From: an uncultured virus (IMG/VR IMGVR_UViG_3300021446_000194)
Lineage: Varidnaviria > Helvetiavirae > Dividoviricota > Laserviricetes > Halopanivirales
Reading direction: 5' to 3' (one strand)
Length of the DNA stretch: 59,021 bases
Virus record (IMG/VR): IMGVR_UViG_3300021446_000194
In this document: one piece after another, positions 11,538-46,310 of the stretch
How the letters are laid out: each line of letters begins with the position of its first letter
Position numbering within the stretch: position 1 is the first letter of the stretch
Position numbers and translations under genes: made by a program
The notes under the pieces: model-generated
The model's database searches: none
Seen by the model: the letters and a program-made list of their open reading frames with translations, nothing else
What the model was told of the DNA's origin: nothing

Positions 11538-12071
11538 ATGGCGGAAGCCAAATGCATCAACGACGACTGTGACAAAGAAGAAACGTGGACACTCAGGAAG
11601 CCCGTGCCAGAGTACAGCGGCGGGGTAACCTGCCCCGAGTGCGGGTCAACCCGCACAGAGATTCACGGTGAAGAGACGGCCAACATCACCGAGGTACAGA
11701 CGGCCAACGTCCAGCAGGCACAGACACCCGCGCAGAGGGGCGGTGAAGGCCGGATGTCTGGGGCTGAAGCGACGCTCGCTCTCTTGGACGGGGACCTGGA
11801 CAGGCGCAAGCGAGCTGAAGGGGCAAGCAAGGTGCTTTCCTTCGGTCAAAACCTCCTCCAGACGGCAGCCGAGTACGCGGAACAAAAGGACGAGGCAAAA
11901 AGGCAGCAGGCACAGCGGGCGAGCGTCGAAGCTGAGACCAACTACCCGGACTGTCCCGAGTGTGGGTTCACGTTGACCGAGGACGAGATCCCCCTGGGCG
12001 AAGAAAAGGTCCGCTGTCCCGAGTGTAAGGCCGTACTCCGTGTTAACCTTCCTGAGCAACAGGAACCGTAG
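11538..12071 (+). CDS. Zinc-ribbon protein
   Basis: CxxxxC, CPECG, CPECG and CPECK. Confidence 0.8.
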   Translation: MAEAKCINDDCDKEETWTLRKPVPEYSGGVTCPECGSTRTEIHGEETANITEVQTANVQQAQTPAQRGGEGRMSGAEATLALLDGDLDRRKRAEGASKVLSFGQNLLQTAAEYAEQKDEAKRQQAQRASVEAETNYPDCPECGFTLTEDEIPLGEEKVRCPECKAVLRVNLPEQQEP

Positions 12072-12498
12072 TCGGACCGAGGCGAGATAGCTCGACCCAA
12101 CTGGGGTCGTCCAACACTTCACCCTTATCAACCCGCAAGCTTTTCTCCGTCTCGTGAGCCAACTCTGGCGATCCGAAATACACACCCTCGCAGTCCTCGC
12201 CGTAGCAAGGGTCGCCGTTTTGGGTGTCAAAGTCCACTCCAAGAAGAGCAGTAGCGCCAAACTTTGACGCCCAATACCGTAGGTGCTCCACCTCTTCCTT
12301 CGTGAAGTATACTCTTCGCTCCCCCGGACATTTCAACTCCCCGGCGATCTGCACTTCTCCAAGGCCTGCGAAAACATCAGGACTCTCACGGTCAGTCCCT
12401 CCACCGGACGCTGGCGCTCGAAGGACAGCCCACCCCTCCGAGTCGAGTTTGTTCGCAACTTTCCGCTCCGACCGATTTCCCTTTTTGTTACTCGGCAT
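12043..12498 (-). CDS. hjc: Archaeal-type Holliday junction resolvase
   Basis: KGNRSERKVA..L...GWAVLRAPASG...PDVFAG...GELK, a PD-(D/E)xK Hjc signature. Confidence 0.9.
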   Translation of the reverse strand: MPSNKKGNRSERKVANKLDSEGWAVLRAPASGGGTDRESPDVFAGLGEVQIAGELKCPGERRVYFTKEEVEHLRYWASKFGATALLGVDFDTQNGDPCYGEDCEGVYFGSPELAHETEKSLRVDKGEVLDDPSWVELSRLGPTTVPVAQEG

Positions 12499-13261: not shown

Positions 13262-13546
13262 ATGAACCCGGACACATCTGATGAATCCAACGAAGCCGAC
13301 CGTCGTAGCGTAGTAACCCAACAATTTCGTGTGAACGACGCCGTTGTTAGTGGCTGTCCTCTCTGTGAAGCAGAGGTTAATGTATGGATACCCTTCTCAA
13401 CAGAGTATTACCCAGAGGGGGATAATCGAGACTACCTCGGCCTGAAACGCGCTCTTTCTGATGAGCACGGACTGTCAGTCTCGGTTACGGAAGTGAAGAA
13501 CCACATCGACGGCCACGTCGGATTTAGTTTTGGGGTGCAGCAATGA
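13262..13546 (+). CDS. Small zinc-finger protein
   Basis: CPLC and HxxxH; ATGA overlap with the next gene; CTTAAAA upstream. Confidence 0.7.
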   Translation: MNPDTSDESNEADRRSVVTQQFRVNDAVVSGCPLCEAEVNVWIPFSTEYYPEGDNRDYLGLKRALSDEHGLSVSVTEVKNHIDGHVGFSFGVQQ

Positions 13547-16338
13547 GCATCTTTGACAAGATCGGCTCTCTTACCGAACGGCTACTTGATCGGGTCGGAC
13601 GAGATTACGGTAACTGTCTCAGTTGCGGAAAGCCGACACGGTCACACAGTGTCGGTGGGGGGGTCGAATGTCACGCCTGCCACACCTCCGACGAGGGGGT
13701 TCTCGTAACCGACGGAGGAGAGAACTTCACCCAGATCGCCGACGATCCCGATGCAACACGGCAAATTCGCGCATTGGCTGACATCCCCGAGTTTATGGGG
13801 ACCGACTTGGAGGACTACGATCTTTTCGAGGGCGACGTAGCCGACGTGCCCGAGATGAACGCCGAGGTGCTGATCCATCAGGGCCTTGCCGAGATCGTAG
13901 AAGACGACGACGATGATGAAGAACTGGGCGATCTCGGACTCGAACAGTTCATGGGTAGCGGACCGGGTGAGGGCGAAACGAATCCAGACCCGCATCCGAC
14001 GAACACCATGAGCCACCAGGGCAATGTGTCCCGTCAGAAGAGCCTGATACCGACTGGACAGCTCAACGCTCAGACCCACACTGAGCGAAGGGTGAACGCC
14101 CGGGAGTACGGACGCAACCCGCCGAGTACCGATGAAGTTCGTGACCGGCTTGAAGACGCGATAATGCGGGTCATGCGCGAGGAAGACAAACGTGTAGTCG
14201 AGTCGCCAACAAGCTCGGGGAAGACCCACACCGTCGCCGGCACGAGGTGGGGGGCCAGAGAGGAAATCACCGGTGGGAACCAAGTCGTTCAACTGATGCC
14301 GACCCGAGACGCGAGAGACGATGCAGCCAATACGGCAGAAGAGTACGGTGGTGACCACCTCCTTCTCTACTCCCGGGACGAGTTATGCCCGGTTGTCGCT
14401 GGTGAAGAAGACCCCGAGGAAGACGAGGACGGCAACATGGAGGGTGGGATCGTCATGGACGGCATACCGGCCTCAGAGTGGATTGAACACGTCTGTAACG
14501 ACAAAGGTGTCCACTTCTCCGTTGCCCACGACTACCTCAACAAGCACAATGACCGAGGCCTTGATCTACCCTGTACCCACGACGGCGACTGCCCCGCGAT
14601 CAAGCAGCACGAGAAACGCCGCGAGGGGGACCACCCGCTAATCATCGCTACGCACAACTTCGCCCACGTCCCAGGGCTACGCCACGGTCGGCACGTCGTG
14701 ATGGACGAGGAACCGGACTTTAGCGTCGATCTCGACACCGACCGTATCCGCCGGGCTGCCAACGCTTTTCTTACCGAAGTCGGGGCTCCGGTCCGGTCGT
14801 GGGAGTCGTTCCTCCGTTTGGCCGACTACGACGGCTTCGGCGACGACGCCTTCCGCGAGGCCGAGGAGACTGAGAAGGCAATACGCAAGACCCCGGATTA
14901 CGAGTGGTTCATCGAGGACGAAGACGCCCATACGATGATCCCCGCGATACTGCGGGCGGTTTGGACAGCCGAGGAACAGCCCAGCGGGCGTATCCGCGGG
15001 AAGACCTACCACGAGCCGCCGCGGCTGGACGCTCACGCAAACCCCGACGATGAGATGTGGAACCGCGAGTGGGTCACTGTCGTGCTCGATCAGCAGAACG
15101 AGGTGCGGAACGTCCGCTCGGTGCCGGACTTTAACTCCTGCAAGTCGCTGGTAGGGCTGGACGCTCACCCGTCAATGCCGCTCTGGCAGGTGAATACGTG
15201 GCCGGACATGCAGAAGCTCCGTATCCTCGACCCGGAAGAACGCCGCCTCTGGCGCGAGCACGAGCGAGGGCTCCGTATCGTGCAAGTCGGCGATGCTACC
15301 CGCCCACTCGGGAAGTCGAATTACTACGACAGCCGGGGGATCACCTGCCTGATGGAGCACCTCCGCGACGAGTACGGCGAGAAGTTCCGTACCGCTATCA
15401 CCACCAAGACGGTGAAGAATATGCTTCGGCAGGACATGGAGATCGCCGGTGTCGAAAGGCCCGAGTTGATGCACTTCGGGAACACGAAGTCGAAGAACGA
15501 CTTTGCCGGCGAAGAAGTCGGGTTGGTCAACGGGTGCCAGGACCCCGGAGACGGGTACGTGCTTGACCTTCTCGCGGAAGTCGGTGCCGACGCCATGCCC
15601 GAGAAGGCAGATGTGTGCTGTGAGAAGTGTGGTGACCGTGAGGAAGCCCCAGAAGAACCGGGTCCGGGCTGTCCGGCCTGTGCCGGCACGGGTATGGCTC
15701 GACAGCACGGTCGCGGGTTCACCGGCGAGGACGCCGAGACCGCTGAGGCGATCCTCAACAGCGTCCGGCAGGCCGAGACGGCGCAGGCGGCTGGCCGCTG
15801 GGCTCGTCGCGCCGATCACTCCGACGATCACGCGACCGTCTTCGTCAGAACGGACGTACTGCCCTCGCACATGGTCGACGTGGTCGTTCCGGGCGTCGTC
15901 TGGACGTTCACGGACAAGCAGCGGGAGGTGGTCGACTCCCTCCGCGAAAGCGTTGAACCGAAGCGTGCACTGAAGGTCGCCGAGGAAGCCGGTGTCTCGA
16001 AGGAGTCAGTACGCCGGACGTTCAACCGGCTCGCTCCGGACGACCCCGACGACACACCTGATGGGGTTGGTTCCCGGGGGTACATCCACGCCTTTGAGAA
16101 GGCTGGGAAACACGGTGCAACGCTGTACGCGGACAACGGAATGCCGAACAACGGTGTTGCTGACATCTCGCTGGAGGAGGAAACCGCCACGAGTCACGTT
16201 TGGGATAACTATACGTGGTCCGTGGCGATCCGCGACCCACACGACCCGCCACAGCATGTCGACAGCACCGTCGAGACTCCACAGCAGGGGGAGTCGCTGG
16301 ACGAGTGGAGTGATGCGGCGACAGAACCAGGCGGGTAA
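13543..16338 (+). CDS. Replication protein: Zn ribbon, GINS B-domain, SF2-like helicase core, C-terminal wHTH (reminiscent of haloarchaeal RepH-type proteins)
   Basis: Walker A SPTSSGKT, Walker B VVMDEEP, motif VI QAAGRWAR, HTH ALKVAEEAGVSKESVRRTF; GINS-B pattern IRALADIPEFMGTDLEDYDL.EGDV..VP..NAEVLI..GLAE. Confidence 0.75.
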   Translation: MSIFDKIGSLTERLLDRVGRDYGNCLSCGKPTRSHSVGGGVECHACHTSDEGVLVTDGGENFTQIADDPDATRQIRALADIPEFMGTDLEDYDLFEGDVADVPEMNAEVLIHQGLAEIVEDDDDDEELGDLGLEQFMGSGPGEGETNPDPHPTNTMSHQGNVSRQKSLIPTGQLNAQTHTERRVNAREYGRNPPSTDEVRDRLEDAIMRVMREEDKRVVESPTSSGKTHTVAGTRWGAREEITGGNQVVQLMPTRDARDDAANTAEEYGGDHLLLYSRDELCPVVAGEEDPEEDEDGNMEGGIVMDGIPASEWIEHVCNDKGVHFSVAHDYLNKHNDRGLDLPCTHDGDCPAIKQHEKRREGDHPLIIATHNFAHVPGLRHGRHVVMDEEPDFSVDLDTDRIRRAANAFLTEVGAPVRSWESFLRLADYDGFGDDAFREAEETEKAIRKTPDYEWFIEDEDAHTMIPAILRAVWTAEEQPSGRIRGKTYHEPPRLDAHANPDDEMWNREWVTVVLDQQNEVRNVRSVPDFNSCKSLVGLDAHPSMPLWQVNTWPDMQKLRILDPEERRLWREHERGLRIVQVGDATRPLGKSNYYDSRGITCLMEHLRDEYGEKFRTAITTKTVKNMLRQDMEIAGVERPELMHFGNTKSKNDFAGEEVGLVNGCQDPGDGYVLDLLAEVGADAMPEKADVCCEKCGDREEAPEEPGPGCPACAGTGMARQHGRGFTGEDAETAEAILNSVRQAETAQAAGRWARRADHSDDHATVFVRTDVLPSHMVDVVVPGVVWTFTDKQREVVDSLRESVEPKRALKVAEEAGVSKESVRRTFNRLAPDDPDDTPDGVGSRGYIHAFEKAGKHGATLYADNGMPNNGVADISLEEETATSHVWDNYTWSVAIRDPHDPPQHVDSTVETPQQGESLDEWSDAATEPGG

Positions 16339-20865: not shown

Positions 20866-23800
20866 ATGGTCTTTCCCACGTTTGAAGTGAAGGTGTCAAA
20901 CCAAGTGCTCCGCCCCACCGTCTCCGCTGCCGATCAGATAACCGACGAAGCGGTGTACGAGGTGTCCGAGAAGGTTCTGAAGACGGAAGTTGTCGACGCC
21001 GGCCAGAACACGTACGCGGAGACGGTCACGGAGTTGGGGGCCGAGGAGGAAGTCAATGTTGAGATGCCGGGGCAGTTCGGAGTGTCAACCGCCAGTCTGA
21101 GCAGTGCACTGAATGACCTGAGCAAGAGACAGGATGTAATCCTGTCCGGGGAGGCGGTGAGCGCAGAGATTGAGGTGGTCGACCCTCAGAGCGGTGATGT
21201 TGTGTCATCCCTCGGGATGAAAGACCCCGAAGAGTTGCGTGACACGCCCGAGCCCCCGCAGATCAACTGGGACGCGGAAGTCGAAATGAACGGTGGCGAC
21301 TTCCGTGAGGTGCACCTCGCGGCGAAGAAGGTCTCTAACAATCTTACTCTGGGGGTCGCGGACAACCCCGAACGGGGAGAGACTGGTAAGGCTCTGCTGG
21401 CCTACGCTGACGGGGACACAGACGACATCGGATTCTACCCGGACTTCGAGTTTACCGGGATCGGGTCCCCGCCTGGGGACGTTGGTGCCATCTACAGCCT
21501 GGACCTTCTTGGGGACCTGAGAAATTCGATTGATAAGCCTTCATCGACGGCTCTACGGCTGCGTTTCAGTGGTGTTGAGTTTCCTGTTGAGGCGAGCTTT
21601 AGTATTGGCCCCGAATCTGAGACTAGCGTCCGATACATCGTCAGTCCGAGACTCAAGCAAACCGACTGGGAGCTGACCGATGACCTCGGTGCTATCGACC
21701 CCTCAAGCTACGGGTTTTCCGAGGTCGGGTTCCGGCTCGGCACCGACGGTGAGCATGGCCGCGCCTTGTTCGATCTGATGGGCATGTACGCCGACGAGTA
21801 CCGGATCATCGCCCGCGAGACGGGGATCGAGAGTGCGTCTATAGACCCAGCTAACGTCGGGCTGATCTCGACACAGGCCGACCCCAGCTACTTCGACATC
21901 TACGAGGAAGTGGCTGGGTTCCCCCAGCAGCAGGTTGGTATTGCGTCACGGAACATCGAGGAGTTGCTGAAGCGGTTTAACAAGAGGGACGACTTCGAGC
22001 TTGCGGTGTCGTCCAATCGTCGGTACGTGGCGCTCCAGCACCCATTGTTCACCGCCCGCCTCGCAACAATAGACCCGGATGCAATCAGGGCCGACCCCAG
22101 CCTGCCGGATCTGGAACTTACCTCTGAGGCGCAGGTGCCCTCGGACGAGTTGGTTAATACGCTGTCCCCGATGGTCGGCAAGGATAGAGTTGCTGGGTAC
22201 ATCGTCGGGAACGGTGAAGCGTGGTTGGTCGCCGATGCTTTCAGCGGTGGGTCCGCGTCCCAATTGCAGACAAGCTCAGTTAACGGGCGCGCGTTCACGG
22301 CGCTGTCGGGTGAATATCTTGGGAAGATGATCGACGCCATTCCAGGCATTCCCGGTGGTTCCGTGAGAATGAGAGCCGGAGTGGAGCTTCCCGTTGCGTT
22401 CGAGTACCAGACCGGCGGCGGCGATCTCACGGCTGTCTCCACAATTGCCCCACGCCAAATAACGGACGACTTCCCCGAGAAGATCCGCGATATGAAGGAG
22501 GCGATCCCAAACGGTCGGGATGTCCTGAACTGGATAGACCCGGCGAACCCCGACGACTGGGACAACCCTGATTTCTCGGTGTCCGCATTCTCGGGCGCCA
22601 AGATAGAGCCGCTTTCGGAGCGCGTTCGGGCTGAGCGTCTCCAGTCCTACCCCGTGGAGCTTGATGTCGAGTTCACCCATTTCGGGGAGTCCGACGAGGC
22701 GTGGTCCTACGAGGTGGATGAAATGGAAGTCACCGGGAACAGAGGAAGGAAGCGAGACACCACAGTCTACCTCGAACTGGAAGACGGCGAAGACTTCGGC
22801 GCTTCCGACAACGCCATCCGGAGTGCGTTGGAGGATGTGGGCGACGCCTTCGACTTCAGCCTGATCGACACGGGTGAGCGCGTCGCGCAGGCGACGTTCA
22901 GCTCTGAAGACGAGTACACAGTCGAGCTACTGAACGTCCAGCCAAATACCAATCACGCGATCACCACCTCCGACGGGTACCGGATTCGCAGTCTCACCCG
23001 GGACGACAACGAGTACATCTACACCAGCGCCCCGGACGAAACGCCCGCAGAGGGGCGGGTCGCCTTTCGGGCCGTCGAGGACCCGCAGGGGAGCACGTTC
23101 GGATTCTATCTCGACATGATCGACAACGACGATGTTGAGGCGCGAGCGAGCGTTACTGGGCTGCCTTCTATTAGCCAAGCCTACGGGGCTATGGTAGAGT
23201 GGATTAGGAACCACACGTTAGAAGATGCCGTCGAGACCGCTGGCGGCGAAGTGACCGTCTCCGACCGCGAGGTGCGCGACCAGCTATCGGAGTTGGCTGA
23301 CACGTACGTCGACTACAACATGGAGGAGCGGCCGGGGAGTGGCGTCGATGAAGGGGAGTTCTATGCAGCCCTCGTCGGGAAACTTAACGTCCTTCCTGAC
23401 GCTTCCCACCGGGCAGACATCAGCGTCCGAACCCCGACTGAGCAGCGCCCTACATACAAGGTCGACTGGACGGTATCCATCATGCCAAGTCGCCTGGGTG
23501 GGCTGGTAGACAGTCAGCACCTCGGCGATAATGACATTGGGGAGACCGACGACAAGGCTGACGTTCCCGGGATGGTGGAGGAGGCGATCCGTACCCTCAG
23601 CGGCTACAGTCCATACCTCGCTCGACGCGACAACGAGGATGTCCCGCCTCAGAACGCGCGTAACCTCCCGGGATTCCGCGAGAACGACATCCGGAGCTAC
23701 GTCGACGCATCGCTCCCGGTGCCGAAAGAAGAACTTGCTTCTGAGATCGCGGCGGACGCCGACGGTCCGCCGGTCGAACTAGAGGAGGTGTCGCAGGTGG

Positions 23801-26800
23801 GCCCATCCCGCGCGGAGGTGTTGGAAGAAGACGGTGTGTTCGACGTGATTGACGTGGCGGTCCTCCTGTCGTCCACCAAGACGAGCTTCCTCTCTACGAC
23901 GCTGGTCAATCTTCCCGAGACACCACGGGAAAGCATACAGGAGGCAGCAGCAAAAGTGTGGGCTCGGTACATCTGGCCGAAGCGTGAGCTACCCGACGGG
24001 TATGATCGTATCGGGTCAGGCGACGCGGAGCCCCCAGAAACCGACAGCGATCCCGTGCTGGAGGAAGATACGTCTCCGGAACCGCCGGACATCGACGATC
24101 TCCCCTCTGCGTTCGGCGACTGGGAAGCGACGACGATGGACGACGCAAGCCCGGTGTACGCCCGCGAGTTTGAGATCAACGGCGTCGAGGTGCAGTCTCA
24201 GGTGTCTGTTCAGCCAGCCAACGATGGTGAGACGTGGGAGGTTATCCACAGCATTGCCACGTTCGGCGATGATGGATCTGAGGTAAACTCGTTCACCGTC
24301 GACACAGGGTACGAGTCGGTGGAGATGGCTGTGCCCTTCCTCGCTACCTACCTTGGGGACGAGGCTCTCGAAGACATCGCCGAGAAGATGCCCTCGGTTG
24401 AGGCTCCCCCGGACGATGAAGATGAAGAGGAGGCTGCCATGGAACCCGACTCTGACCCTGACCCGTCTGAAACGCCTGAGCAGCCCCCGGAGCCGTCTGA
24501 CGGCGGCGGAGACGGCGGCGACAATGTGTTTCCCATCGAGGCTGAAGTGACGCTGGTTTTGGATGACGGCGAGGCGGTGGTCGACGTGGAGGCGTCGAAC
24601 CTCGACGCCGTCGATGAGGAGACGTTGGGCGACTTCTTCGACCTCATGGAGATCGTCGCCGACCCCACGTTCCGGGACCCACCGGATTTCATCGCGCGCG
24701 CTGTGTTCGAGTCGCCGATGGAGTACGACTTCGTGGAGTACAACGAAGCGACGGAAGGGCTAGACCCCGAAGACTTCGACCCGCCCGGTGGGTTCGAGAC
24801 CACTACCGACGAGGGCGTGACCAAGCCCGACATGGAGCCGCTGGAGACGTGGCGTGCTCCGGGGGGTGAGCAGGTAGAGATATATCGAACTACGGTTTAT
24901 ATCAACCCGCCCCTCAGCGACTTCACTGTCGAGGCCGACATCCCGCCGGAGACGGCGCAAGAAGTGGTCCGGAACATCGAGGGGTACACGCTGCTCAACG
25001 AGCGAGAAGAGCAAGAGCCCTCGCAACCGCAGGACCAGGACTCCCAGGAACCCCCGGAACCGTCACGCAGTGAAGGCACCGACGAGTCAGAGACTGAGGA
25101 AAGACCTACCCCGAAGGCGGACGAACCGGATGTTACTGTGAGCGAACGCGAAGACGAAAAGTCCGTTCGAGGCGTCCCGGTGAGCACGATCCCGGATGTG
25201 CTCGAACCCGTCCTTCCGGGCGTCGAGGTTGAGGTGGACGTGACAGGGAACGTCGTGGAGCTTCGGGAGAACGTTGTCCCCGACGCGCAGGACCTCTTCG
25301 ACGGAGAGCCTGCGGTCGTAACCGCCCAGACAGGCGAGGGCAGCGACCTCTTCGAGCAGGCTGTGGTAGCGTACAACGCTGCTGTCGATACTGATCCCCT
25401 CGACGTGGAGGCGGTCAACGACGCAAGACGCAACGCTGATCTCGACATCCCCCTGCTCGATGAATCCCCGGCGGTGAGTGAAAGCGAAGAGCCGGAGCCC
25501 GAACCTGTTGGCGGCGAAGACCTGCCGGTCACTGACCAGGATCGGGTTGAGCTACAGGAACTTGCTGAGGTCCTTAACAACGAGCAGATTCCGGGAGAAA
25601 CCCGGGCGGAGGAGGCCAGCGAGACCGTCGACAGCATCTTGCAGTCGGCATATCCCAACACCATCGAAGACTCGCGTGTTGATCTGGACTTCGGCCGTGG
25701 CGGCGGTCTTCGTGCGTTGGTTCTGACAGCCCAACTTACCTCTCAGAAGCGGGACGACATCGCTGGTAGGTCTATCTGGGCTGACCCCGGTCCGCAGGGA
25801 GGGACTGTCGTCCAGTTCCGGATACTCGGCGATCCCAACAACCCCGTCTCTCTGATCCAGTCTTTCGAGAAGGTGATGGACGGGCTGGATGAGACACGGC
25901 CAGGGAACCAGCGCCTCAAAGACAAGCTCGACCACATCGAGGACTTCACCACGTTCAAGTTCGTCCGAGGGAACGTCGATCTTGACAAGTCGTTCATCAG
26001 CGCCCCGGAAATGCGGGCGCTACTCCCCGAACTGGCTGAAGAGATACAGAGGAGTTTCGACGCCCACCTCCAGAACATCGACGCTGCGTACTACGCTGCT
26101 CAGAAGGTACACGAGGTAGACACGGGCGGAGACATCCGCGGCCGTTTGGAGCAGTCCGTGGGCGACTTCCCATCTCCCGGTTCGCGTGCAGAGATGCTCG
26201 AAAAGGCGTTGGGCGCGCTGGACTCTGGCGACTTCGAGCCCGGTGTGTTCTTCCGTCGGTACTACGACTCCATCGCCCGTGACACGCCTTCGGATATCTG
26301 GGAGGAGCGCGGTATCGTCACCGACGACGATGAAGAGGAAGAGTCCGAACCGGAGCCCGAACCGGAGTCGGAACCAGAACCGGACTCCACTGAACGCGAA
26401 CCTGGACCCGAACCCGAGTCCGAGCCGTCCCCGGGCGGTGAAGAGCCGACCCAGCAGGGTGTCGAGGAGAAGGATACCTCATTCTCCGAGATGTCTGAGG
26501 TGGTGACAGACCTCTCTGCTGTGGAAGAAGAGTTGGAGGAAGTGGTCGGCAACACCAGACTCGGCGACATCGGCGACCCCACAGTCGCCGACGAAGCACG
26601 GGAGGCGCTGACCGAAGTGCAGGAGATTAAGGGTGTGTTGAGTGAGAAGTCGCTGGGGGAGGTCCAGCCCTCGGATATCACGCAAGCCCGCTTCGCCGTC
26701 GATATCGGACAGGCTGCTGTCGAGAACATGGAGACCGCCGCCGAAGAGTCAGCGGACCCCGGGCCTGAACCCCAGCCTGAGCCCACTCCCGAGCCCCAAC

Positions 26801-27327
26801 CCGAGCCCACTTCGGAGCCCCAACCCGAGCCTGTTGGCGAGTTCAACACCTTCGAGCAGGCCGTCGAGGAACGCGGGCCTATCCAAGTGGAGGTGTTCGC
26901 GCTGGAGCGCGGCTTCGGTAACGTATTCGGGCTTCGGCTCCCCGACCAGCCGGAACTGACGCAGAAGGAGGGGGAGGGCGTCGCCGATCAGGTTGCCCAA
27001 GAGCTGTTCAGCGAAGTCGACCCCGACGAGTACGCCCCAGGCGAGGCTATCGGAACGGCTGTCGTCTCACCTGACCGCGTCGAGAGTATCGAAGTGGGCG
27101 GCGTCACGGACGACCAGCCAGCCCAACCTGCGACTGATCCCGAACCGCAGTCCGGTGGGTCTGCCGCGGAGCAGATGGGCCGGATGGATACCGGCGACGT
27201 GGAGATTGATGAGCTAACCATCGAGGATCTGGACATCGAGGAGGTGCGGGTCGGTGATGTCACCGCGGAGAACGTCAACACCAAAGACGTGCGGGACATT
27301 CGGTCCGACATCGAAGAAGACATCTGA
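20866..27327 (+). CDS. 2153-aa acidic protein with two tandem N-terminal PCNA domains, a central HhH motif and Pro/Glu linkers
   Basis: Domain 1: DPEELRDTPEPP, ADGDTDD, YSLDLL, EFPV, YIVSPR. Domain 2: IDPANVG, IDPDAIRADPSLPDLEL, EYLGKMIDAIP, GVELPV, IAPR. HhH: LEEVSQVGPSRAEVLEEDG. Confidence 0.85.
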   Translation: MVFPTFEVKVSNQVLRPTVSAADQITDEAVYEVSEKVLKTEVVDAGQNTYAETVTELGAEEEVNVEMPGQFGVSTASLSSALNDLSKRQDVILSGEAVSAEIEVVDPQSGDVVSSLGMKDPEELRDTPEPPQINWDAEVEMNGGDFREVHLAAKKVSNNLTLGVADNPERGETGKALLAYADGDTDDIGFYPDFEFTGIGSPPGDVGAIYSLDLLGDLRNSIDKPSSTALRLRFSGVEFPVEASFSIGPESETSVRYIVSPRLKQTDWELTDDLGAIDPSSYGFSEVGFRLGTDGEHGRALFDLMGMYADEYRIIARETGIESASIDPANVGLISTQADPSYFDIYEEVAGFPQQQVGIASRNIEELLKRFNKRDDFELAVSSNRRYVALQHPLFTARLATIDPDAIRADPSLPDLELTSEAQVPSDELVNTLSPMVGKDRVAGYIVGNGEAWLVADAFSGGSASQLQTSSVNGRAFTALSGEYLGKMIDAIPGIPGGSVRMRAGVELPVAFEYQTGGGDLTAVSTIAPRQITDDFPEKIRDMKEAIPNGRDVLNWIDPANPDDWDNPDFSVSAFSGAKIEPLSERVRAERLQSYPVELDVEFTHFGESDEAWSYEVDEMEVTGNRGRKRDTTVYLELEDGEDFGASDNAIRSALEDVGDAFDFSLIDTGERVAQATFSSEDEYTVELLNVQPNTNHAITTSDGYRIRSLTRDDNEYIYTSAPDETPAEGRVAFRAVEDPQGSTFGFYLDMIDNDDVEARASVTGLPSISQAYGAMVEWIRNHTLEDAVETAGGEVTVSDREVRDQLSELADTYVDYNMEERPGSGVDEGEFYAALVGKLNVLPDASHRADISVRTPTEQRPTYKVDWTVSIMPSRLGGLVDSQHLGDNDIGETDDKADVPGMVEEAIRTLSGYSPYLARRDNEDVPPQNARNLPGFRENDIRSYVDASLPVPKEELASEIAADADGPPVELEEVSQVGPSRAEVLEEDGVFDVIDVAVLLSSTKTSFLSTTLVNLPETPRESIQEAAAKVWARYIWPKRELPDGYDRIGSGDAEPPETDSDPVLEEDTSPEPPDIDDLPSAFGDWEATTMDDASPVYAREFEINGVEVQSQVSVQPANDGETWEVIHSIATFGDDGSEVNSFTVDTGYESVEMAVPFLATYLGDEALEDIAEKMPSVEAPPDDEDEEEAAMEPDSDPDPSETPEQPPEPSDGGGDGGDNVFPIEAEVTLVLDDGEAVVDVEASNLDAVDEETLGDFFDLMEIVADPTFRDPPDFIARAVFESPMEYDFVEYNEATEGLDPEDFDPPGGFETTTDEGVTKPDMEPLETWRAPGGEQVEIYRTTVYINPPLSDFTVEADIPPETAQEVVRNIEGYTLLNEREEQEPSQPQDQDSQEPPEPSRSEGTDESETEERPTPKADEPDVTVSEREDEKSVRGVPVSTIPDVLEPVLPGVEVEVDVTGNVVELRENVVPDAQDLFDGEPAVVTAQTGEGSDLFEQAVVAYNAAVDTDPLDVEAVNDARRNADLDIPLLDESPAVSESEEPEPEPVGGEDLPVTDQDRVELQELAEVLNNEQIPGETRAEEASETVDSILQSAYPNTIEDSRVDLDFGRGGGLRALVLTAQLTSQKRDDIAGRSIWADPGPQGGTVVQFRILGDPNNPVSLIQSFEKVMDGLDETRPGNQRLKDKLDHIEDFTTFKFVRGNVDLDKSFISAPEMRALLPELAEEIQRSFDAHLQNIDAAYYAAQKVHEVDTGGDIRGRLEQSVGDFPSPGSRAEMLEKALGALDSGDFEPGVFFRRYYDSIARDTPSDIWEERGIVTDDDEEEESEPEPEPESEPEPDSTEREPGPEPESEPSPGGEEPTQQGVEEKDTSFSEMSEVVTDLSAVEEELEEVVGNTRLGDIGDPTVADEAREALTEVQEIKGVLSEKSLGEVQPSDITQARFAVDIGQAAVENMETAAEESADPGPEPQPEPTPEPQPEPTSEPQPEPVGEFNTFEQAVEERGPIQVEVFALERGFGNVFGLRLPDQPELTQKEGEGVADQVAQELFSEVDPDEYAPGEAIGTAVVSPDRVESIEVGGVTDDQPAQPATDPEPQSGGSAAEQMGRMDTGDVEIDELTIEDLDIEEVRVGDVTAENVNTKDVRDIRSDIEEDI
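26764..26833 (+). repeat. Tandem coding repeat (PEPQPEPT)n
   Basis: About 24-nt units such as GAGCCCACTCCCGAGCCCCAACCC. Confidence 0.8.
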
Positions 27328-29615: not shown

Positions 29616-29679
29616 CAACCCCGCTGTGCTGGCTCGCGCTGGCACTGCGGCCTTCCCAGCACCATGCTGGGGGTGTGCT

Positions 29680-30129
29680 ATGACTGAAGCCAACCCGCTG
29701 CCGACTGCAAGTCAGGAGGATTGGACCGAAGAGGATCGCGCGCTTGCCGCCACCGGCGACTTGTGGAAGCCCGACGGCGACGACAACCCTGCCGCCACCG
29801 GCAGTAGAGCGACGACAAACGACGGGCGAGTCTGGGATGTCGCTCCGTCGACTGTCAGCGTCGACGACAACCGGGAGGTCCGAATCTCTCCCCCCGACCG
29901 CGACGGCTGGGTCACATGCGAGCCGACACACCCAGCGTCGGGCAAATGGACTCCGAACCCCATGACCACGGTTATGACTGTCCCACGGGACGGTCACGAC
30001 TACGTCGCCGTTTTCAGGCGTCTCACCTGCGGGGCCGGGACGGTCGGGTACCGGCTCCGCTACGTCGGGCCCTACCTGCACTCCGGAGGTGCGTACTCTG
30101 AGGCGTTCCCCGTCGAGGGGGTTTACTGA
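29680..30129 (+). CDS. Hypothetical cassette-like protein
   Basis: ORF bounded by two repeat copies. Confidence 0.75.
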   Translation: MTEANPLPTASQEDWTEEDRALAATGDLWKPDGDDNPAATGSRATTNDGRVWDVAPSTVSVDDNREVRISPPDRDGWVTCEPTHPASGKWTPNPMTTVMTVPRDGHDYVAVFRRLTCGAGTVGYRLRYVGPYLHSGGAYSEAFPVEGVY

Positions 30130-30189
30130 CCGACACGCCGGCTCGTGCCGGCGTTGCGGCCTACCCCGGAACAGCCGGGGGTGTGACCT

Positions 30190-30693
30190 ATGTCCAACGA
30201 CCACGGCCTATCAGTTGGCGATGTAGTACAGAAGCAGAACGCCCAACGGCTCGACGTTATCGCGGTTTCCGACAACGACGGCGCCGTAACGCTCGTGCCC
30301 GAGGGAAAGCGCACTATCGGCTTCGGCGACCCCGAGACGTGGGGCGCTGAAACCGTTGCTGGCTTCATCGAGAACGGCGACATAAAGGTTCTCGATGGCG
30401 ACAACGACGCCGACGAGTTCGGCGGCACCGACGACCTGCCTGGACGCGCCCAAGCCCGTGAGATCGGCACGACGCTGGAGATCCGCACGAGGGAGGCCCA
30501 ACACGGCTATGTTGCAGACTTCGAGCGGGGTTCCGAGTTGGTGGGAGAGATGCTGAACATCTCCCACTCGGCGGCGTCACTCTCGCCCGGCGCAACGCTG
30601 GAGTTCGGCGGAGACCGTCGGAAGCGCGTTACCGTGCTCGATCAGGGAGCGAGCGGGAGCCTGCTTGCTGTCGAGATCGGCGACAGAGACTAA
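30190..30693 (+). CDS. Hypothetical cassette-like protein
   Basis: ORF bounded by two repeat copies. Confidence 0.8.
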   Translation: MSNDHGLSVGDVVQKQNAQRLDVIAVSDNDGAVTLVPEGKRTIGFGDPETWGAETVAGFIENGDIKVLDGDNDADEFGGTDDLPGRAQAREIGTTLEIRTREAQHGYVADFERGSELVGEMLNISHSAASLSPGATLEFGGDRRKRVTVLDQGASGSLLAVEIGDRD

Positions 30694-30756
30694 CCGCCTG
30701 CGGTACCGGCTCACGCCGGCGCTGCGGCCTTCCCAGCACCGCGCTGGGGTGTGACC

Positions 30757-31119
30757 ATGACCGAAGCCACGACGACGGACGACGACGAGGTACAGCCCGA
30801 GGACGTGATCAATGGCTCAAGGCTTGCCCGCGACTGGGAGCCCGAGGACTGGCGGCAGGCATACCGCAACGCCGGCAGTGTCGAGGAGGCTAACGACGTG
30901 GCTCAAGCCTTCAAGCTGCTGGATTCTGGCCGTTGGTGGGACATGTGCCAAGAGGTGCACAAGGTCTTTGGCTGCTCAGATAAATCCGGCCGCGAAGCGT
31001 TCGCGGAGGCCCACCCGCAGATGGTGGAGTGGGCAAGCGTTTGGGGACTCTGCGAGCATATGGCGCGCTTCCCGCGCCACACGGAGGCTAGCGAGGAGCG
31101 GCTAACCTTCCGCGACTAA
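30757..31119 (+). CDS. Hypothetical cassette-like protein
   Basis: ORF bounded by two repeat copies. Confidence 0.8.
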   Translation: MTEATTTDDDEVQPEDVINGSRLARDWEPEDWRQAYRNAGSVEEANDVAQAFKLLDSGRWWDMCQEVHKVFGCSDKSGREAFAEAHPQMVEWASVWGLCEHMARFPRHTEASEERLTFRD

Positions 31120-31183
31120 AAGCGCCGCTGGGCCGCCTCACGGCGGCGCTGCGGCTTCTCCCGGACCGCCCGGGGAGTGTGCC

Positions 31184-31402
31184 ATGAACTCGACAACAGT
31201 CCGCGAGACCGAAGAGTATGGACAGTTTGCACCGTCGGGCTACACAGTCGCCCCGCTCGGTGACAGCTACGTTCGGTTTTTCGGCGGGTTCAGAGTCGAA
31301 CCCTCCCGTCACTGACAGGCCGTCACGCATGACGTGCTCGTAGATCAGGACGGTAGCGTGCAAGTACATATCAACGGAACGCCGCTCGCAGAACTCCCGT
31401 AA
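31184..31402 (+). pseudogene. Cassette-like ORF interrupted by an in-frame TGA at 31313-31315
   Basis: The frame stays open after the TGA to a TAA that overlaps the next repeat copy. Confidence 0.6.
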
Positions 31403-31456
31403 CGCCACCTCACGGCGGCGCTACGGCCTACCCTGGCACCGTGCCGGGGGTGTGAT

Positions 31457-31777
31457 ATGACCACCGAAGCCAACGCCGACGACTTCGCGGCAGAGATGGA
31501 CAGCAACCCGTGCGGCCGCCGTGTCGGCCTCCGAGCAGTCGGGCCCTACGTGCTCGAACGCTACGACGATCTGATTACTGCCCGCCGTCGACGCAAGAAC
31601 GGCGATGAGTTACAGGAGCGGATCGGCGTTTGGGTCAAGGACCCCGACCATTGGCGGACGTACCGCAAAGTCGGATCGTTCAGGGCCGTAGCAGCCAATA
31701 TCGCCAAGATGTGGGACAGGCTGGACGACACCGATGCCGTCGCCGAGTGGGTCGAAGAGTACCCATCCGACATCTAA
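31457..31777 (+). CDS. Hypothetical cassette-like protein
   Basis: ORF bounded by two repeat copies. Confidence 0.8.
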   Translation: MTTEANADDFAAEMDSNPCGRRVGLRAVGPYVLERYDDLITARRRRKNGDELQERIGVWVKDPDHWRTYRKVGSFRAVAANIAKMWDRLDDTDAVAEWVEEYPSDI

Positions 31778-31842
31778 CCGGCCGCGGTGCCGGCTCATGC
31801 CGGCGCTGCGGCGTCCTGGGGACGGTCCCGGGGGTGTGTTCG

Positions 31843-32103
31843 ATGGTACGAGTTCGAGACCTACATTTCCGCCGACGACCCGGCTACTGCGTAGAGTTTG
31901 ATAGATTCGGGCTGTTCGTTCTCTCCGAGCAGCAGCTCGACGCGGTCGCCGAGGCCGTCGACACGATCAAAGCCGAGACCGCCGACGCTAACGAGACTGT
32001 TACCGGCAGCGTCCACGTATCCGGGGCGAACGCCCGGATCGTGTGGGACGATCCGGACCGCGACCCGCTGGGTCCGACCGATGTAACGCCGGAGGCTGTC
32101 TAA
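31843..32103 (+). CDS. Hypothetical cassette-like protein
   Basis: ATG directly after a repeat copy. Confidence 0.75.
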   Translation: MVRVRDLHFRRRPGYCVEFDRFGLFVLSEQQLDAVAEAVDTIKAETADANETVTGSVHVSGANARIVWDDPDRDPLGPTDVTPEAV

Positions 32104-32219
32104 TGTCTCTCTGGTATAACGTCTGTCGGAACTTCCGACGGGGCGACGGGCTCGGCGAAGATCGGCAGGGTGAAACGTGCTGCTCCGAGTGCGGTACGAG
32201 GCTCCGCCCGAGCGGCTGA
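32103..32219 (+). CDS. Tiny Cys-containing protein (38 aa)
   Basis: TAATG coupling; CSECG; ends at the next repeat. Confidence 0.45.
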   Translation: MSLWYNVCRNFRRGDGLGEDRQGETCCSECGTRLRPSG

Positions 32220-32282
32220 AATCCCGCGGGCCGGTTCACGCCGGCGCCGCGGCTTTCCCCCGGAGCGGTCGGGGGTGTGACC

Positions 32283-32591
32283 ATGTCCGATCAAGACACG
32301 ACCGACGACGAGTATAACCGACCCGACGACGGTCCCGCCACGGGACACGCGGCCGTTGGGTTCGTGACCGGCCAACGCTTCCCCGACGGCGAGCGTCCGG
32401 AGGAGGTCCGGATCATCTACGAGCGCGACGGGAGCGAGCACGCGGCCGTTGTTCTCCGAACATCTGGCTCCGTCGAAATCAGCCCTGGCGACTCTGTGCG
32501 GTTCCAGACCGCCCGCACAAACGTAGGGAGCACAACCGACGTTGTGTATATCGACCGGCTGCTCGGGGCCCGCCCCGTTCCCGCCGAGTGA
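32283..32591 (+). CDS. Hypothetical cassette-like protein
   Basis: ORF bounded by two repeat copies. Confidence 0.75.
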   Translation: MSDQDTTDDEYNRPDDGPATGHAAVGFVTGQRFPDGERPEEVRIIYERDGSEHAAVVLRTSGSVEISPGDSVRFQTARTNVGSTTDVVYIDRLLGARPVPAE

Positions 32592-32640
32592 CCCCCCCAC
32601 GGGCTCGCTCGGCTTCTCCCGGCTTTGCCGGGGTGTGACT

Positions 32641-32940
32641 ATGTCAGAGACCGACACCGACACCGACACGGCGACCGTCAGAGAAAAGAAGTTCAACGGG
32701 ACGGCGACGTTCGAGATCGAAACAACGTCAGCCCGGAAGGCTAAGGCTGCCGCCGAACGCTTCTTCCGCGAAAAACATGGTGAACGTCCCACTGAGACGG
32801 TCGTACAGGAACGCGACCACAACTACCACTGCATCCACGATAAAGCCGACAAAAGCGACCATTCGCTTTACGATGTGATAGTCACCGACCACAGTTCGGG
32901 GACTCATGCAGATGTTGAGACCTACGAGTTCGACCAGTAG
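32641..32940 (+). CDS. Hypothetical cassette-like protein
   Basis: ORF bounded by two repeat copies. Confidence 0.75.
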   Translation: MSETDTDTDTATVREKKFNGTATFEIETTSARKAKAAAERFFREKHGERPTETVVQERDHNYHCIHDKADKSDHSLYDVIVTDHSSGTHADVETYEFDQ

Positions 32941-32992
32941 ACCCGCCTCAAAGCGGGCTGCTGCGTACCCGGCACCGCGCCGGGCTGTGACC

Positions 32993-33274
32993 ATGTCCGG
33001 CAAGGCAACTAACAACGGATGGAAAACTGATGATCCGATCTACAACCAATGCGAGTGTGGGCGCCACGTCCGAGGCGACCGCATCTGTGGGTGCGGTCGA
33101 CGGCAGGGAAAGGGACACACCTACATGGCGAATGGGAACACTGACAGGGCAGGCAACTACGCCGTCGTGGCTGGTAACTATCAGTGGGCAAGTGACACGT
33201 CGGCATTTGATACCCCTCCTGGCGTCGTTCGTGCGTCGGTTAAGGCCACCCTCGACGCCTCGGGGCTCCGATAA
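32993..33274 (+). CDS. Small zinc-finger protein
   Basis: CECG...CGCG; ATG after a repeat copy. Confidence 0.6.
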   Translation: MSGKATNNGWKTDDPIYNQCECGRHVRGDRICGCGRRQGKGHTYMANGNTDRAGNYAVVAGNYQWASDTSAFDTPPGVVRASVKATLDASGLR

Positions 33275-39991: not shown

Positions 39992-40129
39992 ATGGCAAAC
40001 TGCCCGAACTGTGGGTTCGTTCTCGACACTGAGGAGGACAACGATGCCCTCGCCGCCGACGAGCAGTTCGACTACTTCTGCGCGGCCTGCGGGGAGTTGT
40101 ATGTGGAGGCTGACCTCGACGTAGACTGA
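39992..40129 (+). CDS. Small CPxCG zinc-finger protein (45 aa)
   Basis: CPNCG...CAACG; SD-like GGGGTGA upstream. Confidence 0.6.
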   Translation: MANCPNCGFVLDTEEDNDALAADEQFDYFCAACGELYVEADLDVD

Positions 40130-40141
40130 GTATGTTTAAGT

Positions 40142-40471
40142 ATGACTGAGTATGAGATATTCGAGTGCGACGGCTGCGGCGACAGGCACGGCCACAAGAC
40201 AGAGATGCAAGAGATCCTGCTGATCGCCGAGTCCGGCCACTTCGACGAGCCCGAGACGCTGACCACGCACCTCTGCACCACCTGTACGACGAAAGAGATC
40301 GACAGCGCCCTCGAAAAAGTCGAGGCGTTCGGCGTCGACAGGTTCCGTGGAGAGGTGAAGGCGGCCATCTTGAACGGTGGTGATCTTGTCGGCGTCCCGC
40401 AGATGTACGGTAATGAAACGTTCCGTGATGTGCGCGAGGCGGTGGAGCAGGTCGAACAGCGGTTGATGTAG
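40142..40471 (+). CDS. Zinc-finger protein
   Basis: CDGC...HLCTTC. Confidence 0.7.
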   Translation: MTEYEIFECDGCGDRHGHKTEMQEILLIAESGHFDEPETLTTHLCTTCTTKEIDSALEKVEAFGVDRFRGEVKAAILNGGDLVGVPQMYGNETFRDVREAVEQVEQRLM

Positions 40472-40526
40472 ACTGTACGGGCCGTTGCGGCTGTCAGAAG
40501 CCGCTTCGGCATGAGGTGAAACCTGT

Positions 40527-41087
40527 ATGGCAACACGGCTTGATTGGCCGTCGAGTATCGACCGGACTCCGCCCGAGCAGCGGAAAAGCGGGTCCAAGTT
40601 CAGCGTTATGTTCTCCGTCACTCGCGGTGACTTGACCGACGAGGTGGAACGGCTTGGAGCCGACAAATGGCGAATCGACCACATCACCGGCTCCGGCGGC
40701 GACCCTGGCGTTGTCCTCCGCTTCACCCGGGACGGGACTGACCACGCGGTCGCCTGCGACGGGTACGAGACCAAATCGGCGAATCTCCGGGAGCTGTACC
40801 TCTGGGTAGAAGAGACCCGTATGCGGGAGAAACGGAAGGCAGAGGGGGCGAGCGACGCCTTCGCTGCTGCGCGACTTCCATCTGGGGACGGCCCGAGCGA
40901 GGACGACCCGCTGGCGAACATCGACCCCTACGAGGTGCTCGGCGTGCAGCCCAGCGCCTCCGAGTCCGTCGTAGAGGCTGTTGTCAGGCAGCGCAAAGGC
41001 GAAGCGCATCCGGATAGCGGTGGGAGCCAACTGGAGCTACAGAAGGTGGAGAAGGCTGAAGAGATGATCCTCAACGGCCAGGGATGA
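40527..41087 (+). CDS. J-domain (DnaJ-like) protein
   Basis: DPYEVLGV...AHPDSGGS at the C-terminus. Confidence 0.85.
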   Translation: MATRLDWPSSIDRTPPEQRKSGSKFSVMFSVTRGDLTDEVERLGADKWRIDHITGSGGDPGVVLRFTRDGTDHAVACDGYETKSANLRELYLWVEETRMREKRKAEGASDAFAAARLPSGDGPSEDDPLANIDPYEVLGVQPSASESVVEAVVRQRKGEAHPDSGGSQLELQKVEKAEEMILNGQG

Positions 41088-41299
41088 GCGTCGAGGACCC
41101 ACGCCTGTGCCCCGAGTGCCGCGAACCACGGCAGGGGCTTGTCTGTCAATGTGGGTGCGATCTCCGCGAGGTGGATGTCGTTTACTGCGCGGAGTGTTCA
41201 AAGCCGGCGACGAAAGAAGCGGCTGACCGCCAGACGTGGCAGGGGTCGTCTGTGGCACACGCCTCGAAGAGCGGATACTTCTGTCCAAACTGTCAGTAG
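41084..41299 (+). CDS. Cys-rich zinc-finger protein
   Basis: CPEC, CQC, CAEC and CPNC. Confidence 0.65.
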   Translation: MSVEDPRLCPECREPRQGLVCQCGCDLREVDVVYCAECSKPATKEAADRQTWQGSSVAHASKSGYFCPNCQ

Positions 41300-41348
41300 A
41301 TACTGTCGGAGCGCCTTTCACTTGGCGCCCCGTCACTTGGATTCAGCG

Positions 41349-42287
41349 ATGGCTGATCGGTATGACTATCGGATTGACCGGGATGTGGCCGACACGATCA
41401 AACAGCGAGTGAATGATCCGTCGGTCAACGCGCTTGACTGGGCGTGGCAGTACGTCGCACCGACGATGTCAGAGCGACGCCGCGCCCGGACGGCTACGCT
41501 ACTCTCTTTGGCGTCCGAACCCGACAGGAATGGCGTCCGGGGACGGATTCATGCCTTGTACCCCGGACCGGGAGGAACCGGAAAGACGGTGCTTCGAGAC
41601 TGGGTGAAAAATACCTTCGACTGCGCCTACGGCGTTGGTCCCGGATCGTCGGACACCGGGCTGCGCTACAACGCGAACGTGAACAAACCCGGAAAACTCC
41701 ACATGGCCGACGGGGGAGTGCTCTGTGTTGAGGAGTTCGACAAGTTCGACCGCGACGAATGGGAAGCAACCTACGAGTCCATGTCGGACGGCTACTTCGA
41801 GGTGGATAAAGGCGGCGTCGACGCCGAGATCGACGCCGAGACGCGGATCATCGCGGTGTGCAACGAGACACGGCCGTTTTCCCAACCACTACTCTCCCGA
41901 TTCGACTTCATCGTGGAGATGGACGAGTACGATGCAGCGGAGACCATCACCGTCGGCGAGGACATCACTGACCAGTTCATTTCGGCGTTCATCAAAGACG
42001 AAGACGGTGCCGCCCGGCCGTTCCTGCCGCAATACCTCTCCTACATACAGGGGTTCCGGCCGGGGCTCACGGATGACTTCGCCGGGCAGGTGAAGCAGTG
42101 TCTCCGACGGCTGGTCCACGAGGAGGACATGGTCGGGGACATCCGCGGGAAGGAGGCGTACCTACGTATCGCATACACGGCTGCGAAGCTGGATATGCGG
42201 GACGTAGAGGTGGAGGACTGGGTCCGAGCAGTCGATCTCGTCCATCCAGACATCGACGCCGCGGGGCTCTACTCAGACTTCCTTTGA
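41349..42287 (+). CDS. MCM-family AAA+ ATPase lacking the N-terminal domain
   Basis: RGRIHALYPGPGGTGKT, GKLHMADGGVLCVEEFDK, LLSRFDF, sensor-2 helix IRGKEAYLRIA. Confidence 0.85.
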   Translation: MADRYDYRIDRDVADTIKQRVNDPSVNALDWAWQYVAPTMSERRRARTATLLSLASEPDRNGVRGRIHALYPGPGGTGKTVLRDWVKNTFDCAYGVGPGSSDTGLRYNANVNKPGKLHMADGGVLCVEEFDKFDRDEWEATYESMSDGYFEVDKGGVDAEIDAETRIIAVCNETRPFSQPLLSRFDFIVEMDEYDAAETITVGEDITDQFISAFIKDEDGAARPFLPQYLSYIQGFRPGLTDDFAGQVKQCLRRLVHEEDMVGDIRGKEAYLRIAYTAAKLDMRDVEVEDWVRAVDLVHPDIDAAGLYSDFL

Positions 42288-42293
42288 CGGTGG

Positions 42294-43080: not shown

Positions 43081-43162
43081 ATGAGACAATTGCCGCAATT
43101 ACATTTAGTAATGTCGGTCCCGGGGGTTTGAGGGTATCAGAGCCTTCCCTCCGTATGAAGCC

Positions 43163-44300: not shown

Positions 44301-44356
44301 TACCCGTACGGAACCCGAGGTTTGAGGGTGTCGCAGCCCTACCCCCGTGTGAAGTC

Positions 44357-44879: not shown

Positions 44880-44880
44880 C

Positions 44881-45659: not shown

Positions 45660-45668
45660 CCAAGTTTT

Positions 45669-46296: not shown

Positions 46297-46310
46297 CTGT
46301 TTTCCTCGGG

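Follow-up and report, generated by a model that had tools for sequence, protein, structure and literature searches.

A Gins51-type GINS B domain on an XPD/DinG-like helicase of a haloarchaeal mobile element, and its possible role in docking host DNA polymerase D

The 59,021-nucleotide stretch of DNA analyzed here (IMG/VR record IMGVR_UViG_3300021446_000194, filed as an uncultured virus; the window below means this whole stretch) encodes a 931-amino-acid (aa) protein, P0003, in the open reading frame (ORF) 13543..16338 (+). The original prediction placed a GINS B domain at 13756-13899 (+), corresponding to aa 72-119, between an N-terminal zinc ribbon and an acidic linker ahead of a helicase core resembling superfamily 2 (SF2), and proposed that this viral protein recruits host DNA polymerase D (PolD) directly, bypassing the Cdc45-MCM-GINS complex (CMG). 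The sequence of P0003 confirmed this order of modules, and the following features were assigned to the gene:

13543..16338 (+), putative modular replication helicase P0003, with zinc ribbon, GINS B domain, acidic linker, XPD/DinG-like core, zinc-ribbon insert and winged helix
13543..13716 (+), N-terminal zinc-ribbon module, aa 1-58, with C25, C28, C43 and C46 arranged as CxxC...CxxC (from the sequence)
13756..13899 (+), GINS B domain of the Gins51/Psf1 type, aa 72-119 (Pfam envelope aa 75-118)
13900..14034 (+), acidic low-complexity linker, aa 120-164, with an acidic run at aa 120-128 (from the sequence)
14035..15882 (+), XPD/DinG-like SF2 helicase core, aa ~165-780 (AlphaFold2 model, Foldseek, phrog_27506)
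14386..14592 (+), four conserved cysteines, C282, C318, C344 and C350, a candidate 4Fe-4S site (alignments)
15604..15693 (+), cysteine-rich zinc-ribbon-like insert, aa ~688-717, variable within the family (weak HypA-like match at aa 687-727)
15910..16044 (+), C-terminal winged helix-turn-helix, aa ~790-834 (weak DUF7342 and DUF5817_CT matches)

Translation of 13756-13899 (+) gave TRQ followed by exactly the peptide quoted in the original prediction. The ORF ranked second within the window by codon usage (score 213.7); the opposite strand is also open across the B domain, inside a 238-aa ORF, but the codon-usage score of the + ORF is far better. The cysteine-rich insert was absent from four of the 12 aligned sequences (alignment columns 818-845). 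At the position of the winged helix, which probably binds DNA, homologues of P0003 matched HTH_11, HTH_IclR or MarR_2 with E-values of ~1e-5 to 1e-7. Members of the P0003 family are currently labelled 'transcriptional regulator' or 'hypothetical protein' in the databases. The linker contains an (F/A)-M-G motif at aa 136-138 (13948-13956, +; F-M-G in P0003), which is visible in most other family members and whose M137 and G138 do not vary across the 12 sequences of alignment A1; it could be a short linear binding motif.

The GINS B domain was borne out by Pfam, by a profile search of the PDB and by the predicted fold. The Gins51_C family (PF22090) matched aa 75-118 of the whole P0003 over profile positions 3-47 of 48 (E 1.7e-7, 31.3 bits, the curated Pfam cut-off being 27 bits), and the excised 54 aa were matched with an E-value of 1.2e-9 and 38.2 bits. 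The cellular Gins51 proteins of five haloarchaeal genomes reached 24.7-36.5 bits with the same profile; hence, the P0003 domain scores like a genuine Gins51_C. All 12 B segments of the P0003 family matched PF22090 (E<=1), and 10 of them, the P0003 segment not included, also matched PSF1_C (PF24997). A single-sequence phmmer search of the PDB returned two chains only, PSF1 of C. elegans (8ouw_A, E 0.041) and Gins51 of T. kodakarensis (5ghr_B, E 1.3), and the latter protein headed the matches of the profile built from the 12 copies (alignment A2), with E-values of 7.2e-4 for 5ghr_B and 3.4e-3 for 3anw_A. AlphaFold2 (AF2) modelling of aa 69-122, for which the 12 mobile-element sequences were the only input, with no templates and no cellular GINS, gave a beta-beta-beta-beta-alpha-beta topology with a predicted local distance difference test score (pLDDT) of 92.9. 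In the Foldseek comparison of this model with the PDB, ranks 1-11 were all occupied by GINS B domains, Psf1 8ouw_A having an E-value of 8.4e-4 and the second-best match, 5ghr_B, a template modelling (TM) score of 0.88 and a root-mean-square deviation of 1.0 A over 53 columns. Profiles and model together indicate that aa 72-119 of P0003 are a real GINS B domain of the Gins51/Psf1 type. No Sld5/GINS A domain was matched in P0003 (Pfam, E<=1), the flanks of the B domain being the zinc ribbon and the acidic linker, so the protein, lacking an A domain, cannot be a GINS subunit. Swiatek and MacNeill reportedly described, in 2010, a homology between the GINS B domain and the C-terminal domain of PriS.

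The notion that the likeness to GINS arose by chance, in a short stretch rich in beta strands and bearing a cupin-like G-D-x-x-x-x-P motif, deserves virtually no credence. The A2 profile did touch convicilin (7u1j_A, E 0.004) and quercetin dioxygenases (E 0.22), and Cupin_2 was weakly matched by four of the 12 family B segments, but the cupin/vicilin matches span 19-28 residues whereas the GINS matches span the whole domain. The top matches were to GINS in all three comparisons (Pfam, PDB sequences and fold), and the domain, modelled with the above pLDDT of 92.9, is kept in 12 family members. The cupin reading is effectively refuted by the Pfam, AF2 and Foldseek results on the B domain.

The SF2-like nature of the core also held and could be refined, since AF2, Foldseek and the alignments assigned to it an XPD/DinG-like fold and four conserved cysteines. 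Walker A (G226-K227-T228) and Walker B (D388-E389, within DEEP at 388-391) were located, GKT and DE being invariant in the alignments. With 71 family sequences as input, AF2 modelled aa 159-790 at a pLDDT of 90.8 and a predicted TM-score (pTM) of 0.90. Among the Foldseek matches listed to rank 48, only XPD, DinG, CasDinG, DdmD or TFIIH-XPD appeared, the best being 9kqh_A (E 6.7e-12) and XPD 5h8w_A (E 2.8e-10) at 9-12% identity. The fold search was needed because the full-length family profile found no helicase by sequence in the PDB. The core was also matched by phrog_27506, a family with no annotated function, at E 6.5e-31. The model thereby indicates that the P0003 core is an SF2 helicase with an XPD/DinG-like fold.

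Between Walker A and Walker B lie C282, C318, C344 and C350 (C124, C160, C186 and C192 of the modelled core fragment), all four unchanged throughout the 12 aligned sequences and conserved to at least 90% among the 71. We take this position to be the one at which XPD and DinG hold their 4Fe-4S cluster, and by this analogy the four cysteines of P0003 probably hold an Fe-S cluster. XPD and DinG helicases translocate 5'->3' on single-stranded DNA; helicase activity of the same polarity would be expected for P0003. XPD/Rad3, DinG, CasDinG and DdmD, its best fold matches, share with it Walker A, DExx and the four intervening cysteines. In contrast to XPD and DinG, P0003 shows no sequence-level membership of their families and has its own inserts, a C-terminal winged helix and, in its family, N-terminal adaptor or primase modules. 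The context of XPD/DinG is repair, whereas that of the P0003 family is mobile-element replication.

A search of 5.8 billion proteins yielded 75 family proteins including P0003, and every one with a named source was haloarchaeal. The original prediction had asked whether homologous Reps lack the B domain; the majority do, since the B-domain hidden Markov model (HMM) scored 12 of the 75 at 69.9 bits or more and the other 63 at no more than 2.3 bits. The idea that the B domain is the leftover C-terminal domain of a PriS-like primase was rejected on the same HMM scores, all 63 B-less members staying at or below 2.3 bits. The 12 members with the B domain are all short (863-938 aa); the domain begins at residue 1 in 11 of them, and it is preceded by the zinc ribbon only in P0003. 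This zinc-ribbon module heads three of the 74 other members (P0013, P0021 and P0077; 68.7-74.1 bits) as well as a copy in Haloplanus litoreus (L002), and other modules follow it in all four.

The long forms of the family (~1100-1400 aa) have primases in the N-terminal slot: Prim-Pol in P0032 and P0034, DnaG_N/Toprim in P0058 and P0061, and PriCT-2 in P0058. Precomputed domains added PF08275 (DnaG_N) in P0066 and P0077 and PF09250 (Prim-Pol) in P0065, and the profile of 19 further long forms matched PDB chains named 'Primase' (E 5.4e-11). No primase family was found by Pfam in P0003 itself. Comparison of these sequences indicates that the N-terminal region of the family is a swappable module slot and that the B domain stands where relatives carry a primase of their own. 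A comparable layout, a DnaG primase fused to an SF2 helicase, was described for RepA of phages N15 and PY54 (PMC4889955; this and the other articles cited here by accession or preprint number were available in part). As in most P0003 relatives, the priming module of these SF2 replication proteins is N-terminal; in P0003, in contrast, the slot holds a host-derived docking domain devoid of catalytic residues. The family would represent an uncharacterized class of XPD/DinG-like replication proteins in which primase and adaptor heads can be exchanged.

A tblastn search of 50,697 phage records with P0003 gave no match, and its single sequence found none in IMG/VR, where an alignment-based scan revealed 13 loci on viral contigs. 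The B domain was present in one of the 13 IMG/VR contigs with a family member and in none of the 11 genome loci examined (the short loci L003 and L012 stand outside this count). Distant relatives (22-31% identity) reside on small plasmids, and two complete ones (8.9 kb and 10.8 kb) contain no large ORF other than such a relative, which is accompanied by an integrase and small genes. In haloarchaeal genome G109, a copy with the B domain (L065; 886 aa, 769 bits to P0003) adjoins genes for a portal (PF04860) and a prohead protease (S78) and is located in a tailed provirus. We infer that P0003 is a replication protein because of the primase fusions in its relatives, its winged helix, the relatives on small plasmids and the provirus context.

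The sequence comparisons point to capture of the B domain from a host gins51 gene. Gins51_C was present in 398 of 401 haloarchaeal genomes, nine of which had two matches; GINS51 is described as essentially single-copy in the part of an archaeal replication phylogenomics study available to us (PMC3914693). The capture is suggested because the B domains of most Reps in the family resemble those of host Gins51, with identities of up to 76%: compared with 34 host Gins51 C-terminal domains, the P0015 domain reached that maximum with a mean of 63%, and the mean identity was 50% for P0022 and 49% for P0006. The sequence nearest to the P0003 B domain (52%) was a stand-alone 134-aa protein of genome G064, with the motif PEFMGTDLE in both, followed by the Rep P0022 (49%). 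When 1.84 billion representative proteins were searched with the family B profile, 1037 had E<=0.001 and 321 had E<=1e-10. In the best 150 of the 1037 (top matches 72-92 bits), the domain lay mostly at the C-terminal end, its position in cellular Gins51, of proteins of up to ~480 aa, and our reading of the table placed it N-terminally or internally in ~11 of these 150.

The cellular partners of this domain are known from T. kodakarensis, whose Gins51C binds the N-terminal helical domain of the PolD subunit DP1 (DP1N) and GAN, the archaeal counterpart of Cdc45, simultaneously; GAN pairs with the last beta strand of Gins51C, and the substitution V148D or V170D in Gins51 abolishes DP1N binding (PMC9023282). 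PolD, in turn, connects the primase to GINS (PMC8096248). The alignment of the A2 profile to the PDB pairs V148 with F84 and V170 with M105 of P0003, positions that are never charged in the 12 family B sequences. DP1N was conserved in 30 of 30 haloarchaeal genomes checked. With respect to T. kodakarensis Gins51 (3anw, 5ghr, 7e15) and eukaryotic Psf1, the P0003 B domain belongs to the same Pfam family and has the same predicted fold; as in Gins51, it is placed on a flexible linker, and the positions contacting DP1N stay hydrophobic. It differs from Gins51 in being near the N-terminus of a mobile-element helicase, not at the C-terminus of Gins51, and in the absence of the A domain.

Complex formation was predicted for the B domain of the G109 provirus Rep paired with DP1N of G109 itself, with alignments A5 and A4. 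The ipSAE was 0.49 (0.50, 0.49 and 0.47 in the runs) against 0.01 for the best of three controls, contacts agreed between runs by at least 96%, and the partner had a pLDDT of at least 74. This outcome was classed as 'weak support': among 157 solved complexes, 116 attained the mark applied, compared with two of 215 mismatched pairs, and at ipSAE <=0.60 only 18 of the 157 solved complexes passed, as did both mismatches. The proposed AlphaFold-type check of DP1 binding was therefore weakly positive for the G109 provirus relative. By model and analogy, recruitment of host PolD by the P0003 B domain is plausible.

We give a somewhat better than even chance to the reading that P0003 is the replication helicase of the element and that its captured B domain, tethered by the acidic linker, docks host PolD. 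The B domain is regarded as a recruiter because the same domain is the PolD/GAN hook in cellular Gins51. The motor would be an SF2 helicase of the XPD/DinG type, probably with an Fe-S cluster, moving 5'->3' on single-stranded DNA; the host-derived B domain on its acidic tether would dock host PolD, through the DP1 N-terminus, onto P0003, and the host primase would be brought along through PolD. Docking of GAN/RecJ by the B domain could also occur. In other primase-helicases, too, a helicase moving 5'->3' along the lagging-strand template is headed by a priming function. With such docking, the element would need neither a polymerase nor a primase of its own. No DNA polymerase or primase was recognized by Pfam among the 59 element ORFs scanned, the unscanned ORFs all being shorter than ~110 aa; hence, the element must use host enzymes. 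A single small domain of GINS links the replicative helicase to PolD in archaea. If our reading is true, P0003 is a natural experiment showing that the B domain suffices as a polymerase-recruiting module, and a 50-residue bait could reveal, in Haloferax, the haloarchaeal GAN among the RecJ paralogues as well as Gins51-DP1 binding.

Several observations weigh against this reading. The Foldseek TM-scores of the core were modest (0.34-0.48), and P0003 matched no XPD/DinG Pfam family, only DEAD and weakly so (E 0.003, 17.7 bits, cut-off 26). A third group of the family has zinc-ribbon or helix-turn-helix-like modules alone, e.g., L002, so the slot is not a strict choice between primase and B domain. 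The P0003 B domain is the least host-like of the family (mean 37%, maximum 47% identity to the 34 host domains), and its partner could therefore differ. The complex was predicted with self-made alignments for the G109 relative, whose B domain is 45% identical to that of P0003, and the ipSAE of 0.49 may reflect memory, since the similar DP1N-Gins51C-GAN complex of Thermococcus has been solved (7e15). The element encodes both an MCM AAA+ core and a protein with two PCNA units, so the bypassing of CMG claimed in the original prediction, i.e., independence from host MCM, is not established and would at most be expected. Finally, no host could be named: the best match to the DNA of 40000-59021 among 401 haloarchaeal genomes was 70% identical over ~590 bases.

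The same data have to be weighed under other roles for the domain. If the B domain docked GAN instead of PolD, it would stimulate the helicase or bring a primer/flap nuclease. GAN of T. kodakarensis is bound via the last beta strand of the domain (PMC9023282; the crystal structure 5ghr is the second-best fold match), and this strand is present in the P0003 model (E48-50). In Haloferax volcanii, however, three of the four haloarchaeal RecJ paralogues are dispensable (PMC7776575), and GAN docking is compatible with PolD binding, since Gins51C binds both at once; we regard an exclusive GAN role as unlikely. A re-use of the domain unrelated to the host replisome, as a helicase regulator, an oligomerization module or a binder of the element's own PCNA-fusion or MCM-like protein, would agree with the divergence of the P0003 domain from host Gins51 (mean 37% identity) and with the other replisome-derived proteins that the element encodes. 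It seems quite improbable, as the identity of up to 76% between family B domains and host Gins51C is hard to explain without a host-facing surface in use, and the long acidic linker of P0003 suits a flexible tether.

The B domain might also act as a decoy that titrates PolD and/or GAN from host CMG and thereby shuts down host replication. Enzyme-free B mini-proteins (62-134 aa) do occur in mobile-element-like regions of haloarchaeal genomes, and one such stand-alone protein is the closest relative (52%) of the P0003 B domain. The latter, however, forms part of the same polypeptide as a helicase and occupies the slot that holds primases in relatives, which argues for recruitment to the fork and makes the decoy role very unlikely for P0003.

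Further copies of the B domain were noticed outside the P0003 family. Three stand-alone mini-proteins scored 47-58 bits with Gins51_C and lie in lower-GC, mobile-element-like regions of haloarchaeal genomes:

L050:9047-9451 (+), 134 aa, beside Prim-Pol, D5_N/SF3 helicase and OB-fold protein genes
L051:9114-9440 (+), 108 aa, with a HerA-like ATPase neighbour
L052:9111-9299 (-), 62 aa, beside TraG/TrwB-like and VirB4-like genes

A KAP-family P-loop NTPase (L066:7661-10225, +; PF07693, E 8.4e-39) has two tandem GINS B domains at its C-terminus and is encoded in a low-GC island (0.44 vs ~0.70); P0078 is a second protein combining KAP and the B domain. These may be defense-type proteins reading or targeting the replisome. 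An 816-aa protein of no named family (L049:5607-8057, +) contains an internal B domain at aa 711-755 (51.3 bits), and its gene adjoins that of an XPB/Rad25-like helicase. In P0217 (486 aa), the B domain (aa 90-145) precedes an Sld5-type A domain (aa 192-296), reversing the order in Gins51. Second copies of the Gins51 C-terminus, apparently without the A domain, were seen in genomes G346 (L067:8293-8916, +) and G164 (L068:7841-8497, +); both consist of a proline- and acid-rich linker and the B domain, the N-terminal parts of these ORF calls being doubtful.

A broader reading, which we put forward tentatively and with the balance somewhat against it, treats the B domain as a portable 'replisome plug' taken from host gins51, apparently repeatedly, and in P0003 part of a hybrid replisome without host MCM or GINS. 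Its settings would be the helicase fusions replacing a primase, the 62-134-aa stand-alone proteins in provirus-like or conjugative-like regions and the tandem domains on KAP NTPases. If this were true, a 5'->3' Fe-S helicase would be coupled to host PolD and, via PolD, to the host primase, the first such CMG-independent route to PolD. The stand-alone and KAP copies hint at wider traffic, with elements plugging into, blocking or perhaps sensing the replisome.

In the literature searched, mostly the main text of openly accessible articles, we came across no description of a viral or plasmid protein containing a GINS domain. 'GINS' had no occurrence in the available part of a survey of viral replication proteins (PMC4889955) or in that of a haloarchaeal virome preprint (bioRxiv 10.1101/2025.02.15.638363). 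The accessible portion of the latter contains the idea that host replisome genes on haloarchaeal viruses recruit the remaining host replisome. P0003 resembles the capture of MCM, PCNA, Orc1/Cdc6 and RPA by archaeal viruses and plasmids in that a host replication component is found on a mobile element; it differs in that only a 50-residue interaction domain was taken and grafted onto an unrelated helicase.

The P0003 gene belongs to an element with identical 55-base ends, positions 1-55 and 58967-59021 being an exact direct repeat (100% identical), which indicates a closed circle of 58,966 bp; the window is the whole contig. Besides P0003, the following genes were assigned:

12043-12498 (-), Hjc-type Holliday junction resolvase (PF01870, E 1.5e-19), ~1 kb upstream of the P0003 gene, with several small zinc-ribbon proteins encoded nearby
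20866-27327 (+), giant 2153-aa ORF with two tandem PCNA units in the first ~530 aa
41139-42287 (+), MCM AAA+ (P-loop) core, 382 aa, without N-terminal domains (PF00493, E 9.1e-19; positions 269-596 of 682 of the NCBIfam MCM model)
50829-51806 (-), tyrosine integrase

In the giant ORF, PCNA unit 1 (aa ~6-265) matched NCBIfam NF002222 (E 1.6e-45) and unit 2 (aa ~294-530) matched Haloferax PCNA (3hi8_A, E 1.4e-14); Pfam missed both. No third unit was detectable by sequence, and the remaining ~1600 residues are very acidic and matched no family. The element further encodes a subtilase, a glycosyltransferase and a methyltransferase-like protein.

The element, described as viral, may be a virus or a plasmid. 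Scans of 59 ORFs with Pfam and of 39 with PHROGs turned up no portal, terminase or major capsid protein, and tblastn with the structural proteins of the L065 provirus gave no match in the window; on the other side are the related copy in that tailed provirus, the sharing of some element genes with haloarchaeal tailed viruses and one match to a 'virion structural protein' family (phrog_1645, E 2.3e-14). The sequence indicates a complete circular mobile element of a haloarchaeon.

Within 29620-33000, an intergenic unit of ~33-73 bases is repeated, with GC-rich hairpin-like arms followed by ...GTGTGACCATGAC... It occurs four to six times, each time just upstream of a small + ORF (families D1-D3 and D15), and looks like a reused promoter, leader and start cassette.

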